Shown here one piece after another: positions 5,946-60,987 of a DNA stretch of 64,000 nucleotides (the stretch's first letter is position 1; each line of letters opens with the position of its first letter). Made by a program: the position numbers and the translations under genes. Source of the DNA: Candidatus Spongiihabitans thiooxidans. GTDB taxonomy: Bacteria > Pseudomonadota > Gammaproteobacteria > Arenicellales > Poriferihabitantaceae. The stretch lies in NCBI GenBank assembly GCA_001543005.1, contig LFLB01000003.1:221797-285796 (forward strand), given 5' to 3'. The notes under the pieces are model-generated. The model did no database searches. It saw nothing but the letters and a program-made list of their open reading frames with translations, and was not told where the DNA came from.

Positions 5946-8900
5946 TTAGCAATCATATGGAACGGTACAAAGGGCGTGTTGCAATAGATTGATAATCTCC
6001 GTAGCCTTTCCTTTCGCCAGGAATATCCCCTGTTTTCGGCAGTCTTGTTCTGTCATTGTGCAATCGCTTCCAATGTCTTTAGGCTGTGTGGCCGACCAGA
6101 TATAGGAATGCAGGAAAATCTCGGGTTTTTTCTCTTTAATCTTTTTCTCGGTTTCTTTTATCCGTTTGTGCAAATCCACTTTGGATTTGATTTTGCTGTC
6201 AAAGCGCACAAGCCCCTTGGGATCGATAAACAGAATGTCCTGCCTGTTTGAGTCTCTAACCCAAAGAATGAAATCTGGGTAAAAAGAATAATCATCAAAG
6301 AAAGAAACCCCTTTCCCACGGCTGAGATTACGCATCAGGTATATCTCTTTGCCTTGTAGAAAATCAATATTCTGGTTTTCCACAATAACTTTCAGGTATT
6401 CAACAAAATCAGCTTCGCCATCATTCAGCGCAAGCGGTGAGATTTTAACGGATTCTCCCGCACCGACAGATGCTTGAAGCAAGGGAATGTAAGCATGAAA
6501 AGCTGGCGCCAGAAGCGAGAGTTGAAACGCGCCTGATTTAAATTTCTCATCGTAGTTACCTTGCGCCACCTCTTTCGCCAACTGCTCAATGTCTCGTATC
6601 AAATCCTTTTCTTTTACATCAACCGACAGCTGGTATGCTTCGACATAGCTCAAGTTTTCATCATCCAGCGGAACGGCTTCAATGTATTTGTGTTCCCAAA
6701 TGCTTCTCTCTCTGCGCCAATATTGGTTTGCATATTCACAAATCAAGTCAACCGCAAGGTCTTCCCACTCGCGCACTCTTTCATAGTGTGACGGTTCAAG
6801 TTTTTCAGGCGGAATGGTAAGTACATACCAATCCTGATTTTCAAGCAGTTGATTCACTGTTGCCTGAGAAATAGTCATGTTATGCCATGAAAATAGATGC
6901 TTGCGCTCAAGCATTCGGTGATAGACCGACAGTTTGTTTATCAAAGCCAAATACTTTTTTTCAAGTTTGTGTTCTTCTTTGGCAGATGCGTGGCCGCCTG
7001 CTTGATTTTCATTCGATTCAAGAACCTGCAAATGCTTGTAGCGGTCAAGCGTTACCCTATCCCGTGCCTTCGGTTGGCTCGGTAAATCAAGACGCTTGTC
7101 CGAATATTGAAACTCGCCTGCATTGTCCTGCTTTTTGAGTATTTTTAAATCCCTTGCATTTCCAAACTGTTTCTTTGTCGGCAATGTAATTGTAATTCGA
7201 TTGACTGCGACCCCTTCTTTTTGCAGGTAGTCCTTGAATTTGTCCATATAGTTGGCTTTGAGGCCAAAGATGTTTAGCGTTTCAAGAAGTTTGAGTTGGC
7301 CGCTATCCTGTGGGATTGCGCCTTCAAGCGCGGTATGCCGCTTGAGCGACATGCCACGTCCCTTGAGGCGGACACCGCGTCCGAACATCTGGATAATTTG
7401 CGGCCCTTCGCCGGTTCCCACATGCATAAGCCCCATAGTGCTGACCCGCCAGGAATTCCACCCGGCTGCAAACTTGCGCGCGCCGATAACGATATTCACC
7501 GGAGAGTTGTTGTTATCCACATCGGCAAAAAGCGGTTTGGCAAATGCGTCCTTTGCAAGAGAAAAGAGTCGATTTTCAACCGCTTCAAGTTTTGTGTAAA
7601 GCCCGGATGCATCTCCAACATTGACCACCCCGAACGCGGCCGCGTCTCCAACCTTGAATTGAAGTTCGTCCGCTCCGGTGAGATGCGATATAAGCAGTTG
7701 CCCTTTTCCGCGAAACACGATCGCGCATAAGTCATTGTAAATGGCTTGCGGCTGCATTTCTTTAATGTAAGAAAAAGACTCGCTGAATATGTCCTTTCCG
7801 TTTTCATCAATAAGCCCGGTACTGCCGCTTGTGAGTTTCTTAATACCCGTTATCACTTGTTGCGGTTGGCTTTGCGCCCAAGCCAGAAAATTGATGATTC
7901 GGATTACATCGGTTTCCGTTTCTTTCTTGCCAGCGGTCTTGCCTCCGGTGACCGTCTTTCCGAGAAAAACCCAAAGCGGCGGTGCGATGTTGAACTCCCG
8001 CCACTGCCCACCTTTATCCTCGAAAATCCGGCATTGCTGATAAAACATCAACAAGCAGGCAAGCAAATAAACATTGTTCGCCTCGCCGTCATCGGTCTGT
8101 TGCAGATTGGATATTTGATAATCCTTGCCGTAGCCGTCTCCATAGAAAAATTTGTATGAATAATCAAACAAAATTGATTTGCCGTATTCATCGCGCAGTT
8201 TCTTGATTTCATCTCCGCTGCCGGAAACCGCCTGATTAAATGTCGCCGAGTATTCAAAGGTGAACCCGTTTGTGGCAAGTTGCTTGCGCCGTTTTCTCCA
8301 CACCTTGCCGCCGGTTCCCAGATGACCCTCATCCACCATGACAAGATTGTTTTCTTCAAAGGATTCCAGAGCGACCCGCTTAATGCCTTTCCTTTCATCC
8401 AGTTTGTGCAAATCAATGATGTCCACGATTGCGCCACCCTGAGAAAACAAGCCCGGCCCCGCATTGTCGGAGAAAAGTTGCGCCGGTATGCCGCTTGATT
8501 GCAACTCGCGCAAGTGCTGGCGGGAAAGCCCCTCGTCCGGCGTTACCAATATAATTTTGTTGAGTTTGTGCAGCTGTTTGTATTCTTTCAGGTAGTGTTT
8601 GTATTGCAGGATGTTGGCGTGCAAAAGAAGCGTTTTGCCGGAGCCGGTCGCGCTTTGGAAAGCAAGCGTGCGCAAATCGTCAATCGTATAATCGGCAATA
8701 TCGGACGCCCTCTCTCGTCGTTTCCATTCGTTTAGTTTTTCAATCAGGATTTCCGGATCTTGAAAATACAAGTCAAGATACCGCTCGGTAAAAAGCAAGG
8801 CGAGATACTGAAACGGTTTCCACGATTTGCCCTTTTCATTCGTCATCCCCAAAGTCTGGCTATGGGCGAGTATATTTTCGTCATAGCGGGCAAGATCACT

Positions 8901-13318: not shown

Positions 13319-13366
13319 TGTCGTCTTCTGGGGTCGTCTTCTGGGGTCGTCTTCTGGGGTCGTCTT
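13319..13366. repeat. 13-bp tandem repeat (gtcgtcttctggg, about 3.6 copies) 12 nt upstream of the pdxJ start
   Basis: Read directly from the sequence. In the minus sense it reads GACGACCCCAGAA, which shares the GACGACCCCA core with the repeat family at 27.0-27.4 kb. Confidence 0.9.
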
Positions 13367-20705: not shown

Positions 20706-21389
20706 ATGCAAGACCACTTGAAAGTCACAACCGGCGCTGCCGGATTATTTAACCATATCCGTGCCGCTATTGTTAATGGTGACTACGCTTATAACGAGCG
20801 CCTACCTTCCGAGAGAGCCCTGGCAAAGCAATTTTTCGTAGCGCGAGGAACAGTAAGAGCCGCTCTCAATCAATTAGAACGAGCGAATTTTGTCAGAAAA
20901 AAGTTTGGCAGCGGCACATTTATTCATTACGACATCAAATTCGACCAGGACACTATATCTGAAGAAACCAGTCCGTTGGATCTAATCGAGACTCGACTGG
21001 CCATAGAACCCTATATTGTTAAATTGGTAGTCTCTAACGCCAACAATCGGGAGCTAAGAAAACTGGAACAAGCATTAGACAATGTCGTTAATTCTCAACA
21101 AGACCCGGATTCTTTTTCATCCGCAGATGAAGCTTTCCATTTAATGCTGGCGAACTGCTCCCAAAACCCCTTGCTGATTTGGATGTATCAGCGAATTAAT
21201 GATATTCGCCGCCATACCCAATGGAACCACCGTAAACATAATATATTAACACCAGAAAAAATAGCTCAATACAACCAGCAACATAGCGATCTACTAAACG
21301 CCATAATCAGGCGCGATATGGAAAGCGCGTCCAATCTAATGATCCAACACTTGAATCAGGCAAAGAAAGATTTGTTGAAAGATTCTTGA
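20706..21389 (+). CDS. GntR-family (FadR/FCD subfamily) transcriptional regulator
   Basis: Winged helix-turn-helix LPSERALAKQFFVARGTVRAALNQLE followed by an all-helical C-terminal domain. It is divergent from the FAD-oxidoreductase operon. Confidence 0.85.
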   Translation: MQDHLKVTTGAAGLFNHIRAAIVNGDYAYNERLPSERALAKQFFVARGTVRAALNQLERANFVRKKFGSGTFIHYDIKFDQDTISEETSPLDLIETRLAIEPYIVKLVVSNANNRELRKLEQALDNVVNSQQDPDSFSSADEAFHLMLANCSQNPLLIWMYQRINDIRRHTQWNHRKHNILTPEKIAQYNQQHSDLLNAIIRRDMESASNLMIQHLNQAKKDLLKDS

Positions 21390-21604
21390 TGGCGGAAGTG
21401 CAAATAACGCATCGTTACATGGACGTAACTTATTAGAGCAATGCAGGAACAATTGCCGAGGAGCAATGATTTGCCATTACGTCCCTGCAAAATCGGCATA
21501 CGACCGCCAGGGATGGCGGAAGTGCAAATAACGCATCGTTACATGGACGTAACTTATTAGAGCAATGCAGGAGCAATTGCCGAGGAGCAGTTATTTGCCA
21601 TTAC
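21389..21604 (+). repeat. Two 92-bp direct repeats with a 124-bp period, GGA-rich and hairpin-forming, starting at the GntR stop codon
   Basis: Copy 1 is 21389-21480 and copy 2 is 21513-21604, nearly identical. Each contains GTTAC-ATGGAC-GTAAC and GCAATGC-AGGA-(A/G)CAATTGC hairpins. I count 9 GGA on the plus strand. The same module occurs inverted at 27.08 and 27.32 kb. Confidence 0.9.
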
Positions 21605-21618
21605 CATCCATGTAAATC

Positions 21619-21643
21619 GCCGCGGTTGAAAACCGACCGCGGC
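21619..21643. terminator. GC-rich hairpin between the convergent GntR/repeat unit and the amt operon
   Basis: gccgcggt (21619-21626) pairs perfectly with accgcggc (21636-21643) around a 9-nt loop. The flanking U-tract is weak on either strand. Confidence 0.35.
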
Positions 21644-21667
21644 TTGAATAGTAAAACCAATTATTCA

Positions 21668-26062: not shown

Positions 26063-26845
26063 ATGAATCAAAATGACATCCTGACCACCCCGCCCGACTT
26101 TATCCCATATCAATCAACCCTTGCCGATCGCGTCGTTCTAGTGACAGGAGCGGCATCGGAAATTGGAAGTGCGGTGGTATTGGCTGCGGCCAAATCGGGA
26201 GCCACCGTTTTAATGCTGGATCGGAAACAGCGCTTCATGACCGCGCTATATGACGCAATATGCGATCAGGGATTAGCGCAACCGATGATGATTGAGTTTG
26301 ATATGGTGCGCGCTGATTCCCGTGCCTTTGAAACGCTAGGCACATCGTTACTCGCTCAGTTTCCGGAAATTCATGGTTTGGTGCATTGTGCAATGTGGGG
26401 CGCGCCGCTCACCCCTGCACCTCATGCGGAAATGGAAGCCTGGTCAAAAGTACTGGACCAACAGTTGATAAAACCCATGTATCTAACTAAAACGCTTTGT
26501 CCCAATCTAAATCACCCCAACCCGGCATCAATCATTTTCACCGTGATGGACATTGGGCGAGCGGGGCGTGCCTATTGGGGTGCTGTTGGTGTGGCATTTG
26601 CAGGTGTGGAAAATCTTTGTGAATCATTAAGCGCGGAATTCTTCGACTATAAAACCCGGGTAAACACGGTGGATCCTGGCAAGGTTAAAACCGCAATCCG
26701 AAAATATTTTTATCCCGGTGAAACCGATAAAGGTTTAAGAGAAGCAAACGATACTGAAATTGTTAACGCCTATCTATATCTTTTATCGGACGCAAGCAAT
26801 CAGCAAACCGCAAAACGATTCTCAGTCACGCCTTTGGATGGTTGA
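26063..26845 (+). CDS. Short-chain dehydrogenase/reductase-like protein
   Basis: VLVTGAASEIGSAV Rossmann motif. 260 aa. It starts 4 nt after the previous gene. Confidence 0.75.
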   Translation: MNQNDILTTPPDFIPYQSTLADRVVLVTGAASEIGSAVVLAAAKSGATVLMLDRKQRFMTALYDAICDQGLAQPMMIEFDMVRADSRAFETLGTSLLAQFPEIHGLVHCAMWGAPLTPAPHAEMEAWSKVLDQQLIKPMYLTKTLCPNLNHPNPASIIFTVMDIGRAGRAYWGAVGVAFAGVENLCESLSAEFFDYKTRVNTVDPGKVKTAIRKYFYPGETDKGLREANDTEIVNAYLYLLSDASNQQTAKRFSVTPLDG

Positions 26846-26989
26846 AAACTGAGGGATGCGCATCATAACTTTGTAACAAAATAAAGTGGTGGCATATCGA
26901 GAACCCTTTATTCATGGCTTTGTGAACTTACGGACAAAATTGTTTGTTTCAGGACATTCCATTCATCAGCACCGTAACAACGGATATTT

Positions 26990-27383
26990 TCGTCGGCTTT
27001 GGCATCCTCGGCAATTGCTCCTGCAGGTGATGAACAGGAAGTTCAAATGTCGCGATGGCAGGATGCCAATGAGCGACCTCTAATAAGCTACGTCCATGTA
27101 GCGATGCGTCGCTCTACCTCCCCCGTCCCTGGGGTCGTCGGCTTTGGCATCCTACCGCTCTCGACTTCTGTTCCAGACTCAGTTCTATCTCCCCCATCCT
27201 TGGGGTCGTACCTCCCCCGTCCCTGAGGTCGTCGGCTTTGGCATCCTGCGTCGCTCTACCTCCCCCTTCCTTGGGGTCGTCGGCTTTGGCATCCTCGGCA
27301 ATTGCTCCTGCATTGCTCTAATAAGCTACGTCCATGTAGCGATGCGTCGCTCTACCTCCCCCTTCCCCTGGGGTCGTCGGCTT
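26990..27383 (-). repeat. Mosaic repeat block of about 45-bp units that form ANGGAN-loop hairpins on the minus strand (candidate Csr/Rsm-like RNA or REP-like element)
   Basis: By hand count there are 19 TCC (GGA on the minus strand) against 2 GGA on the plus strand within 27005-27366. There are five CCCC-loop-GGGG hairpins (27121-34, 27192-205, 27215-28, 27263-76, 27359-73), two GCTAC-ATGGAC-GTAGC hairpins (27087-102, 27325-40) and four AGGATGCC modules. Confidence 0.9.
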
Positions 27384-28213
27384 CTTTTACTGTATTGCCT
27401 GGATTTTTTGAGTGGTTTAGGAGTAACCACCTTGTCGTTGTCGTCGTTTTTCTCCAGCTTTTCGATTACATCTGCACCAAGTTCAATCCAGTCTCCTAAT
27501 TTAATCCCTCTTGGCAGTGCAACTTTTCCGTACCGAATTCGAGACAGTCTACTTAGTTTGCAGCCAATCGCTTCCCACATCCGCCGAACTTCACGGTACT
27601 TTCCTTGTTTGACAGTAACCGAATACCAGGTATTACTGCGCTCTCCTCGTTGGCGTCTAACCTGTAGAAATTGAGTCAAATGCCCCTCAATCTTTATGCC
27701 TTGTTTTAATCGATCGAGTGATTCATTATCAACTTGCCCATATACCCTGCACAGATATTCTCGCTCTAACCCGAGTTTTGGATGCATCAAATGATGGGCA
27801 AGATCGCCATCATTGGTGAACAACAATAATCCACGGGTATTGATGTCCAAACGACCAATCACAACCCAACGCTCTCCTTTCAATACCGGTAGGCGGCGAA
27901 ATACGGTCGGTCGATTTTTCGGGTCCGACCGGGTACAAATTTCCCCTTCCGGTTTATTGTACAGAATAATACGTTTTTGACGATGGTGTCGCTTATTCCC
28001 GAGCTTTCTTTTTGGGTGGTCTTTTAATGGTCGGCCATCAATATTTATCCGACTACTTGAAGTAACACGATCACCCAGTTTGGCAATCTTGCCATCAACC
28101 GTTATTTTCCCTTCGCTTATCCACTCTTCTATTTTTCTTCTGGAAGCAACCCCGATACTGGATAAATATTTCTGCAGCCGTTCTCGAGCAAGACCGGCAT
28201 CATATCGTGGCAT
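27326..28213 (-). CDS. rluB: 23S rRNA pseudouridine synthase RluB
   Basis: N-terminal S4 domain (LQKYLSSIGVASRRKIEEWI), a RsuA/RluB-family catalytic core (GRLDINTRGLLLFTNDG) and a basic C-terminal tail. The last ~19 codons lie inside the repeat block. Confidence 0.9.
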   Translation of the reverse strand: MPRYDAGLARERLQKYLSSIGVASRRKIEEWISEGKITVDGKIAKLGDRVTSSSRINIDGRPLKDHPKRKLGNKRHHRQKRIILYNKPEGEICTRSDPKNRPTVFRRLPVLKGERWVVIGRLDINTRGLLLFTNDGDLAHHLMHPKLGLEREYLCRVYGQVDNESLDRLKQGIKIEGHLTQFLQVRRQRGERSNTWYSVTVKQGKYREVRRMWEAIGCKLSRLSRIRYGKVALPRGIKLGDWIELGADVIEKLEKNDDNDKVVTPKPLKKSRQYSKRSRRPQGKGEVERRIATWT

Positions 28214-31710: not shown

Positions 31711-33120
31711 TTAGCCATTGTATTTTCCGGTTGGATTGCGCGCTTTTGATGCTATTTTATTTTCTGCGGCACTGCTTGCTGCGCCCTTTTTGGGGTGCCT
31801 TTTTGGGCCTCTTTTTTGATTCGAGTTACCGCGCCCCTTTTCAACCGTTGTTTCAATCATTGATTGGCGCTGATGAAAATCGCAGTCCTGTATTTCGGTC
31901 CACCAATCCACAATATCCTTGCTGACTTCCCCAATTTCCTGACGCAATAACAAAAAATCATAAGCCGCTCGGAATCGCCTGTTTTCAAGTAATCTTTCAA
32001 TGGATCGCGGAATTCTGTTTTCCAACAAAGATTGCATTTCCCATATTTCATGCGCCGGCCCTTTAACTCGCAAAGGCAAAGTAACTGAACTGGACTGCTG
32101 TTTGAAAACCAGATCGCTGGCAATCCAGAAAGCTTCATTTCGTCGCACTCCTTTTGAAACCAGTCTTTTAAATTCAGTTTTGAATGGCCACCACAGCATT
32201 ACCGCAAATAAATACGCAGGAATAACCGGCTTATTTTGTCCAACCCGTTTATCGGTATTGTTAAGCGCACTCAAAATTAACGACTCAAATTTATCCCCAC
32301 CTTCCTGGTTGATACATTTCACCGTTTGCGGAAACAAATAATAAAGCAACAGCGTTTCTCTTAATCGTAGCCAGGTTTTCGCTGCCGCAGAATGGTGAAA
32401 CAACTTCAAGACTTCCTCGAACAACCTCGCCGCCGGAACATCTTGGAGTAGTGCGGCATTTTTTTCAATGGCAGCTAAAATGGATTCCCCTACCTGCAAT
32501 CCCAGTTTGGACTGGAACCGAACAACGCGTATCATACGAACCGGGTCTTCAGAAAATCGAAGATTTATATCGCCAATTATCCTTAATGTTTTTGTCTTCG
32601 CGTCCTCAATTCCGTTAACAAAATCAATAACCGTTTCTTTATTTGGGTCGTAATACATGGCGTTGATGGTGAAATCTCGTCGAATTGCATCAACCTCAAT
32701 GGTGCCGTAAACATTGTCGTCTAAAATTCTGCCGGTACTCGAAGCCTTTGATCTGCCACGAAATCCCTTTTTATTTGCACTGTCGGGCATAGCACGGTAA
32801 GTCGCTACCTCAATTATTTCACGCTCACGACCACGACCAAAGGTGACATGCACGATCTTGAACCGCCGCCCAATTATCCGAGCACGATCAAAAATTTTCT
32901 TGATCTGTTCGGGGTTGGCATTGGTGGTAACATCGAAGTCTTTGGGCTTTCTGCCCATCAATAAATCTCTGACACAACCACCGACTAAATAACCGTCGAA
33001 ACCCGCTGACTGTAATCCTCGGACTACTTTTATGGCGTTTTGACTAACGCATGACTTATCGAATCCCAACTCGACGGCAGAATGTTGGGTGGGTTTCAGG
33101 TGCGTTAATTTCCGTTTCAA
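31711..33120 (-). CDS. pcnB: Poly(A) polymerase I
   Basis: Nucleotidyltransferase block GGCVRDLLMGRKPKDFDV and a basic C-terminal tail. Confidence 0.9.
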   Translation of the reverse strand: MKRKLTHLKPTQHSAVELGFDKSCVSQNAIKVVRGLQSAGFDGYLVGGCVRDLLMGRKPKDFDVTTNANPEQIKKIFDRARIIGRRFKIVHVTFGRGREREIIEVATYRAMPDSANKKGFRGRSKASSTGRILDDNVYGTIEVDAIRRDFTINAMYYDPNKETVIDFVNGIEDAKTKTLRIIGDINLRFSEDPVRMIRVVRFQSKLGLQVGESILAAIEKNAALLQDVPAARLFEEVLKLFHHSAAAKTWLRLRETLLLYYLFPQTVKCINQEGGDKFESLILSALNNTDKRVGQNKPVIPAYLFAVMLWWPFKTEFKRLVSKGVRRNEAFWIASDLVFKQQSSSVTLPLRVKGPAHEIWEMQSLLENRIPRSIERLLENRRFRAAYDFLLLRQEIGEVSKDIVDWWTEIQDCDFHQRQSMIETTVEKGRGNSNQKRGPKRHPKKGAASSAAENKIASKARNPTGKYNG

Positions 33121-42739: not shown

Positions 42740-42960
42740 AAAAATAAGAAAGCAGGTATTACCCGCAAATGCCGTATGCTCACTTGCCTTGAACCAAAAG
42801 GGTCCAAAGTGGGCGCAAAGAATAACTTCGGGATTCGCGCCAGCTCAACGCTGAGGTCATACACACCCGTCATTCATAACAGCACCCGAATTGATAGATT
42901 AGGTTCTAAGGGTTTCGGAGAACAACTCGAACACCGCAGGTAATACCCACACTGAGTCTA
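42740..42960 (-). ncRNA. ssrS: 6S RNA (ends approximate)
   Basis: It lies in the 411-bp gap between zapA and ygfA, the conserved ssrS position. A long closing helix is present: ggtattacc (42755-42763) pairs with ggtaatacc (42939-42947) and extends with G-U pairs. A GGUUCAAGG hairpin segment lies about 35 nt from the 3' end in the minus sense, as in E. coli 6S RNA. Confidence 0.6.

Positions 42961-58413: not shown

Positions 58414-60987
<2,574 letters not shown>

Follow-up and report, generated by a model that had tools for sequence, protein, structure and literature searches.

Arrays of GGA-rich hairpins are the usual computational signature by which CsrB-like RNAs are nominated. Known Csr small RNAs (sRNAs) have no sequence conservation and contain 9–25 GGA motifs, and they are recognised by many such motifs together with a promoter and a terminator (PMC11882849). 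Here, we analysed an array of this kind at positions 26990–27383 (minus strand) of a 64-kb stretch of DNA (hereafter, the window) from Candidatus Spongiihabitans, a sponge-associated gammaproteobacterium of the order Arenicellales, where an initial annotation had placed a CsrB/Rsm-type sRNA gene downstream of rluB. The array consists of 48-nucleotide (nt) units, here called type A, and two copies of a second 48-nt module, here called X; it belongs, as a compound copy, to a repeat family that is dispersed and mobile or expandable, and it overlaps the 3′ end of rluB. We propose, with moderate confidence, that it is one copy of a fast-changing family of hairpin modules and, more tentatively, that it may form a CsrA-binding 3′ untranslated region (UTR) at this locus.

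The array shares with CsrB, CsrC and RsmX, RsmY and RsmZ a large number of GGA motifs (19, and at least 39 in a 13-unit array of the related locus L009, within or above the quoted range of 9–25; PMC11882849), several of them in short hairpin loops, as well as a recurrent CAGGAUG and imperfect repeats. Unlike those sRNAs, it has no covariance-model match and no promoter, GacA box or terminator of its own, it overlaps coding sequence, its unit occurs at multiple loci and also inside open reading frames (ORFs), and its content turns over between close relatives. The RAYT-mobilised REP and BIME repeats of Enterobacteria and Pseudomonas offer a second comparison: they too are short, G+C-rich imperfect palindromes with linker motifs in mosaic clusters, lie after stop codons and between operon genes, are hypervariable between strains and break short-read assemblies, and among the loci sampled here mosaic clusters were found at many, with some copies intragenic. 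In contrast to REP and BIME repeats, however, it is the loop and not the stem that is conserved here, GGUAG/GTAG lies 3′ and not 5′ of the hairpin, arrays can be long, head to tail and of one orientation, some units are intragenic and in frame, and no RAYT gene was seen in 443 kb of sequence. BOX elements of Streptococcus pneumoniae, organised as boxA-(boxB)n-boxC, are strongly folded, dispersed intergenic elements with tandem middle units of ~45 nt; they resemble the array in being modular, with a variable number of tandem middle units between other modules, but are unrelated in sequence and host and lack the GGA-loop theme, and we know of no report of BOX units inside ORFs.

A repeat array that overlaps the end of rluB

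The array lies between a gene for a short-chain dehydrogenase (SDR) protein (26063–26845, plus strand) and rluB (27326–28213, minus strand; S4 and PseudoU_synth_2 domains by Pfam on the ORF translation). The rluB reading frame enters the array for ~57 nt, such that the last ~19 codons and the stop are repeat sequence, with the TAG stop (27326–27328) in the 3′ arm of the first hairpin (HP1) of a module X. Up to the start of the array, RluB and its L009 orthologue are alike; exactly there, the RluB tail departs from it. The earlier placement of the array in the gap after rluB thus describes its downstream part, but the array is not purely intergenic. An exact-sequence look-up of RluB returned no record, and the neighbouring SDR and ScpB proteins were on record only on short contigs ending in arrays. 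Indeed, short-read contigs of the same organism end exactly at this array and at a related locus at 21.4 kb in the window, as expected of multi-copy repeats, which have that effect on assemblies.

Further copies were sought with a 22-nt piece of the shared module in one genome per species, yielding 18 loci, in two Candidatus Spongiihabitans chromosomes, Colwellia aromaticivorans (5), Thalassotalea (2) and three uncultured Gammaproteobacteria; scans of metagenomes and viral sequences added 27 loci and 2 phage-like contigs, respectively. ORF calls in these loci are mechanical, and orientation statistics come from a handful of loci. The type A unit reads GACGA, CCCC-AAGGAU-GGGG, GAGGUAGAGCGACGC, AGGAUGCC and AAAGCC, and each unit thereby carries one G+C-rich ANGGAN-loop hairpin, a GGAGGUAG linker and a CAGGAUGCC motif. 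In related genomes, arrays of this unit occupy four independent loci (rluB, pcnB, an erpA-like gene and grpE). At the 3′ end of rluB, L009 has a syntenic array with a different series of units. In the 3′ end of pcnB, L009 (6904–7565) carries a 733-nt insertion that includes 13 identical type A units and shows no target duplication, and the corresponding site in the window (31749–31757, no strand assigned) is empty; the pcnB frame stays open through all 13 units, extending the predicted PcnB tail by ~230 amino acids (aa) with MPKPTTPRMGEVERRR repeated. Ten identical units begin 2 nt past the stop codon of an erpA/iscA-like gene, and ~60 nt after them a hairpin and T-run can be made out by eye only, being absent from the terminator-scan listing. 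In grpE, a single unit is embedded in frame within the N-terminal region (L017, ~7672–7724; ...SSIGVYG-DDCMDAGDRATQDAKADD-SREGLMEKL...). Five of the six reading frames of the type A unit are open. Its orientation relative to the host gene is sense at each of the four independent loci, a pattern that is suggestive but not significant (P ~0.06). A search with array-encoded peptides found only four spurious ORFs, which serve as pointers to related arrays and not as a copy count; through them, similar arrays were located in four more metagenome contigs, and some of these arrays stand away from genes, with terminator-like sites after them in the GGA sense. In-frame insertion into genes without destroying them (the grpE unit and the pcnB and rluB tails) recalls the Rickettsia palindromic elements (RPEs). 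Those are single elements of 100–150 nt without a GGA-loop signature, in contrast to the tandem 48-nt units seen here.

These observations bear directly on the dedicated sRNA gene that had been proposed, that is, a separately transcribed, GacA/UvrY-controlled CsrB/Rsm antagonist RNA downstream of rluB that sequesters CsrA. In its favour, eight of the 19 GGA motifs are in hairpin loops, CAGGAUG and C-ANGGAN-G hexaloops agree with known CsrA sites, a related genome carries the locus in synteny and similar arrays elsewhere precede terminator-like sites. However, the rluB ORF ends inside the array, and scans of 26500–27800, which can miss atypical signals, detected no sigma-70-like promoter on either strand and no terminator on the minus strand; the GacA box TGTAAGN6CTTACA, allowing up to two mismatches, was not found anywhere in the window. 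The Rfam models for CsrB, CsrC, RsmX, RsmY and PrrB_RsmZ did not match the window at gathering score, positions 26800–27500 even at E ≤ 10, or any of 14 related loci, and Rfam as a whole, searched at gathering and permissive thresholds, gave no match for either array, a Colwellia copy or the 14 related loci; the sole Rfam family in the window is 6S (SsrS) RNA, whose gene lies elsewhere (42756–42945, minus strand; RF00013, 61.9 bits). Given the poor sequence conservation of Csr sRNAs, the missing match carries little weight. Nevertheless, only one of the three hallmarks by which these sRNAs are recognised, the many GGA motifs, is present at rluB. Nor is this a dedicated low-copy locus: the 48-nt unit recurs at the rluB, pcnB, erpA-like and grpE loci of a related genome, partly within pcnB and grpE coding sequence and directly past the erpA-like stop, and unit number and composition shift between close relatives. 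As the CsrB/Rsm family is defined, the array falls outside it, and we consider a dedicated sponge RNA at this site very improbable.

The composition of the array can be followed in the minus (GGA) sense. A first, partial type A unit (27343–27378; GACGA, hairpin CCCC-AGGGGAA-GGGG at 27359–27373 and linker GGAGGUAGAGCGACGCA) is translated within the RluB tail. It is followed by an intact module X (27295–27342, TCGCUAC...UUGCCGA), delimited by comparing empty and filled sites; its insertion point is GACGCA^GGAUGCC within a type A unit, and it holds the rluB stop and comprises HP1 (GCUAC-AUGGAC-GUAGC, 27325–27340) and HP2 (GCAAUGC-AGGA-GCAAUUGC, 27298–27316). The canonical type A unit (27234–27281; GACGA, CCCC-AAGGAA-GGGG at 27263–27276, GAGGUAGAGCGACGC, AGGAUGCC and AAAGCC) forms a hairpin that presents GGA in its loop. 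Next come two degenerate type A units (27140–27233), with hairpins CCUC-AGGGAC-GGGG (27215–27228, one pair of which is U-G in the GGA sense) and CCCC-AAGGAU-GGGG (27192–27205), and then ~40 nt of unique filler, the 3′ end of this stretch being AGGAUGCCAAAGCC. A half unit (27105–27139; hairpin CCCC-AGGGAC-GGGG at 27121–27134 and linker GGAGGUAGAGCGACGCA) precedes a second, altered module X (X2, 27008–27104; HP1, GCUAC-AUGGAC-GUAGC, at 27087–27102), in which CAAU of the HP2 5′ arm is replaced by a 53-nt piece (27025–27077) with a GGA-loop hairpin of its own, UGGCA-GGA-UGCCA, that faces the other strand; the X2 variant is also present in L006 and L015. The terminal linker GGAUGCCAAAGCCGACGA (26990–27007) forms the 3′ boundary in the GGA sense, and the orthologous array of L009 has the same boundary. 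Overall, the array is a mosaic with five copies of the CTACCTCCCCCnTCCnTGGGGTCGT hairpin piece, four exact copies of TCGTCGGCTTTGGCATCCT (the four AGGAUGCC modules recognised earlier) and a 31-nt piece that is present twice here and again, in inverted orientation, at 21408 and 21532. Much of the initial description therefore stands, including every hairpin that it listed, with the unit length corrected from ~45 bp to 48 nt.

The GGA bias that first drew attention to the array was borne out by a recount (19 minus-strand and 2 plus-strand GGA in 27005–27366) and is the strongest of any 362-nt stretch in the window. However, dinucleotide-preserving shuffles contained 16.2 ± 2.7 GGA, with 379 of 2,000 reaching 19, such that the raw count largely reflects the purine richness of the minus strand and does not go beyond composition. 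(A second GGA-biased stretch, at 49.8–50.3 kb, is coding sequence of an AMP-binding enzyme and not an array.) Hairpin placement, by contrast, is far beyond chance: the array has six ANGGAN hexaloops with closing stems of four or more pairs (0.05 expected; none of 2,000 shuffles reached six), although the six are not independent events because the units are copies of one another. The whole window contains nine such hairpins, eight of which belong to the rluB array or to the locus at 21.4 kb. When the minus-sense RNA was folded as an ensemble, seven hairpin-loop GGAs were unpaired with a probability of 0.91–1.0 (0.48 for the loop GGA of the CCUC hairpin); eight of the 19 minus-strand GGAs lie in hairpin loops, and the mean unpaired probability is 0.66 for GGA versus 0.44 overall.

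Could the array be a structural 3′ element only, REP-like or a bidirectional terminator between the convergent SDR gene and rluB, that blocks 3′ exonucleases, its GGA content a by-product of descent from one ancestral unit? Consistent with this, neither of the two convergent genes has a recognisable terminator, both strands fold slightly better than shuffles (z ~ −2.3 each) and, as above, composition suffices to account for the GGA count. Descent alone, however, leaves unexplained why ANGGAN loops persist over compensating stem changes in several organisms and why GGA loops occur in all of several unrelated modules, and we judge a purely structural role improbable.

Module X as a discrete insertion

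The second layer of the array, module X, reads TCGYUAC-AUGGAC-GUARC, CUUAUUAGRG, GCAAYGC-AGGA-GCARUUGC and CGA, and its ends are defined by sites with and without it. Empty sites are simple hairpins of the form stem-GCAGGAGCA-stem (L004 at 6437 and 1387; L014 at 7952), whereas filled hairpin-loop sites hold X, exactly 48 nt in 10 of the 14, between GCA and GGAGCA. Similarly, the type A linker GACGCA^GGAUGCC lacks X in 27 instances and holds it in 4. X invariably has the sense of its target GGA, carries a hairpin close to each end and shows neither terminal inverted repeats nor target duplication. Its insertion into a GCA^GGA hairpin loop yields a three-helix element, in 12 sequences of which 92% of cells are paired and both sides have changed in 9 of 21 pairs (7 of the 9 in the outer helix), a covariation score reached by none of 500 shuffles.

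A covariance model of this element (R1) found four places in the window: 21398–21476 and 21522–21600 on the plus strand, and 27283–27356 (67.1 bits) and 27005–27118 on the minus strand, the last being X2, the variant interrupted by the 53-nt piece. Together with the repeat families, this search upheld the initial observation that the 21.4-kb locus is the only related one in the window. That locus is a tandem repeat of period 124 (21388–21625, plus strand) in which an outer helix, GCAAAUAAC/GUUAUUUGC, encloses X. In copy 1 (21398–21476, plus strand; 95.5 bits), X sits in the loop of a GCAAAUAAC/...AUUUGC hairpin (P1); in copy 2 (21522–21600, plus strand; 107.1 bits), P1 is GCAAAUAAC/GUUAUUUGC, with nine perfect pairs. 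The flanking GGA-loop hairpins partly face the other strand. The locus lies between a GntR/FCD regulator gene and a 55-aa minus-strand ORF, is followed by a strong hairpin (21619–21645) and is syntenic with L015.

X is also present in Colwellia and Thalassotalea, in further Gammaproteobacteria and in two phage contigs, in varied surroundings. Colwellia-type copies lie inside an element of ~370 nt that resembles a MITE (a miniature inverted-repeat transposable element), with inverted ends of ~40 nt (TATATACCCG...TTCAG / CTGAA...CGGGTATATA) and a highly folded interior, found in L007, L010, L011, L013, L018 and ~20 metagenome loci (for example, L022 and L024). Two variants of this element are collinear from end to end but differ in the AAGG^GA site that holds the 49-nt core. 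The rluB array and X itself differ from MITEs in lacking terminal inverted repeats, a feature that the Colwellia host element does have. In L012, X is within an element of ~150 nt flanked by 20-nt inverted repeats. The two phage or prophage contigs, which are related (IMG/VR), carry X-type three-helix elements (L055, 8766–8853, plus strand; L056, 8663–8740, minus strand) in the sense orientation, preceded by the portal gene, a small gene and a terminator and followed by a PAPS-reductase-like or scaffold-like gene; their HP1 keeps the AUGGAU loop on a different stem, CUGC/GCAG, and their outer helices covary (CCCGACA/UGUCGGG versus CCCGAAAAU/AUUUUCGGG).

Other leads came to nothing. A viral scan with GGATGCCAAAGCCGACGA gave seven matches, all ordinary non-array sequence and attributable to chance; BLAST searches of plasmids with the array and the Colwellia element returned only short chance matches, in pglX or unannotated; and a five-codon mini-ORF in HP1 (AUG GAC GUA ACU UAU UAG) has no ribosome-binding site and loses its frame in L020. 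Beside the X copies of L006 there is another type of repeat (7340–8000, minus strand), composed of ATTCCC-N8-GGGAAT palindromes (for example, GGATTCCCGCTTTCGCGGGAATGAC), which we take to resemble the dRS3-type repeats of Neisseria.

The behaviour of X suggests a role for the GGA loops in mobility. Precise, oriented insertion without duplication and with hairpins at the ends is a hallmark of IS200/IS605-type insertion, and X, in being placed at a fixed point by a short motif (GCA^GGA, or AAGG^GA in Colwellia), resembles the palindrome-associated elements derived from that family, although no transposase for X was found in 443 kb of loci and, at 48–49 nt, X is to our knowledge smaller than the described elements of this kind. 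The array could thus belong to single-strand-DNA elements of the REP/RAYT or IS200/IS605 palindrome-associated kind, with a transposase supplied in trans recognising the hairpins and cutting next to GGA, the loops acting as recognition sites and landing pads, arrays growing by repeated self-targeted insertion and any RNA effect being incidental. Insertions nested in the loops of other modules (L005, L033, L035 and 27025–27077 of the window) and arrays of mixed orientation with GGA loops on both strands fit such a process, as does the orientation of X, which at sites with co-directional flanking genes is antisense to both genes at five and sense at four; the phage and prophage contigs would be a plausible vehicle between genera. 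On the other hand, no Y1/HUH transposase was seen in the 443 kb, where a gene with one copy per genome is easily missed (tblastn with an IS200 TnpA query gave only chance-level matches, E ≥ 1.9); REP systems conserve the stem and a 5′ GTAG, whereas here stems are free, loops are fixed and GTAG is 3′ of the hairpin; the 48-nt type A units have no defined insertion target; and a transposase leaves the CAGGAUG and GGAGG in single-stranded linkers unexplained. We regard mobility as an unlikely, although substantial, alternative explanation of the GGA loops, and it and a CsrA-related role are not mutually exclusive. With respect to the generic repeat against which the initial annotation had weighed its RNA gene, the units are indeed multi-locus and mobile, and X occurs in both orientations, but the 48-nt type A unit is sense at all four loci.

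Loop constancy and candidate loop readers

Across the clustered ANGGAN hairpins, 36 distinct sequences display ~20 different stems by inspection (for example, CCCC/GGGG, CUGC/GCAG, GYUAC/GUARC, CCGCC/GGCGG, CCACC/GGUGG, CCUAC/GUAGG, GUAC/GUAC and GCC/GGC), whereas nearly all of the loops are AUGGAU, AUGGAC, ACGGAU, AGGGAC or AAGGAU. Units of other organisms likewise keep linkers and loops on yet other stems (GCAUAC/GUAUGC, CUCC/GGAG, GCCC/GGGC and CUGC/GCGG). Because the loops are constant over freely varying stems, some trans-acting factor probably reads them. In the GGA sense, stem positions of the 36 hairpins comprise 133 Watson–Crick pairs, 6 G-U, 1 A-C and 4 other combinations; the excess of G-U over A-C suggests that pairing is kept on the strand that displays GGA, although these are small numbers and a folded DNA strand, with G-T pairs, suits them equally well.

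Judged by sequence, CsrA is the best candidate for the loop reader at the RNA level, with a mobility machinery as its main rival. The consensus of CsrA ligands from systematic evolution of ligands by exponential enrichment (SELEX) is RUACARGGAUGU, in which ACA and GGA are invariant and GGA is in a hairpin loop (PMC4347634). HP1 reads GUUACAUGGACGUAAC or GCUACAUGGACGUAGC; in the form RUACAUGGACGU, it keeps both invariant triplets and 10 of the 12 consensus positions, with GGA in the loop, such that the loops remain putative sites of the CsrA/RsmE type, as the initial annotation had suggested. The CAGGAUG of the unit is the classical CsrB repeat. A tblastn search with Escherichia coli CsrA gave no match in the window or in 443 kb of related loci, and a paper on cold-seep sponge-symbiont genomes and its supplements make no mention of csrA. 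In the literature, the module sequences appear in no paper, and no paper ties CsrA to REP-type repeats.

From loop conservation, the match to CsrA ligands and sense orientation, binding of CsrA in the mRNA tail is a reasonable inference, and we suggest tentatively that the array may act in a CsrB-like manner there. A bolder version, in which the type A unit and X are mobile CsrA-binding cassettes homing into CAGGA sites across gammaproteobacterial genomes, MITE-like elements and phages, appears rather unlikely; under it, the two GGA loops of X, ~25 nt apart, could clamp one CsrA dimer.

A proposed CsrA-binding mRNA tail and its implications

Our preferred reading, of one copy of a dispersed repeat family that may serve as a CsrA-binding 3′ UTR, can be set out as follows. 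Tandem 48-nt units would expand and contract like minisatellites at or within the 3′ ends of genes, in the sense orientation, and the two-hairpin, 48-nt X would enter GCA^GGA sites in one orientation as a second layer, two copies having landed in the rluB array. With no separate promoter or terminator detectable, the array is probably transcribed as the tail and 3′ UTR of the rluB mRNA, which would then display ~8 GGA in loops and ~10 in single-stranded sequence. If CsrA reads the loops, the array would be a CsrA-binding 3′ UTR that titrates CsrA or recruits it to the mRNA, in addition to a generic, REP-like influence of stable 3′ hairpins on mRNA decay.

Several points weigh against this reading. 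The notion of a dispersed family rests on ~10 arrays in ~130 kb of sampled sequence and on the assembly breaks; a search of 443 kb of sequence revealed neither a transposase nor any other gene for mobilisation; and, without target duplication at pcnB, the units could have spread by recombination or slippage and not by transposition. An rluB array is kept at the same position in two lineages that are 7–14% apart in nucleotide sequence, which, together with the sense orientation of type A units at four of four loci, fits selection for an RNA function and not just selfish DNA. Gene-distant arrays with terminator-like sites may represent a free-standing sRNA form of the type A unit. Finally, csrA was not found in the sequence searched, and arrays of mixed orientation, such as that at 21.4 kb, face both strands, so that one transcript cannot use all of the GGA loops.

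Elsewhere in the window, a run of 32 C (58420–58451) begins 6 nt past the ATG of an 857-aa ORF (58414–60987) whose N terminus resembles a lipoprotein signal (LLTAC, then a glycine run); it could reflect a slipped-strand phase-variable gene or an assembly artefact, and the 2 kb around it has a G+C content of 0.58, above the window average. Perfect short tandem repeats were also present at 13320–13366 (GTCGTCTTCTGGG, 3.6 copies) and 2492–2526 (ATTGCCCGT, 3.9 copies).

Together, these results indicate that scans for GGA-hairpin density alone can mislead, because a dispersed mobile repeat can give the same signature as CsrB-like RNAs. X has no Rfam match, is among the smallest site-specific insertion modules of which we are aware and is common to distant Gammaproteobacteria and phages, and it thus presents a new object for the study of REP/RAYT systems, IS200/IS605 elements or structured RNAs. 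Were the modules mobile CsrA-binding cassettes, they would constitute a distributed, transcription-coupled CsrA sink in mRNA tails, and phages would gain a way to tamper with host Csr control. More generally, if the loops bind CsrA, binding capacity would be distributed among many mRNA tails, and repeat expansion could bring gains or losses of it, a design other than that of one or a few dedicated sponge RNAs.

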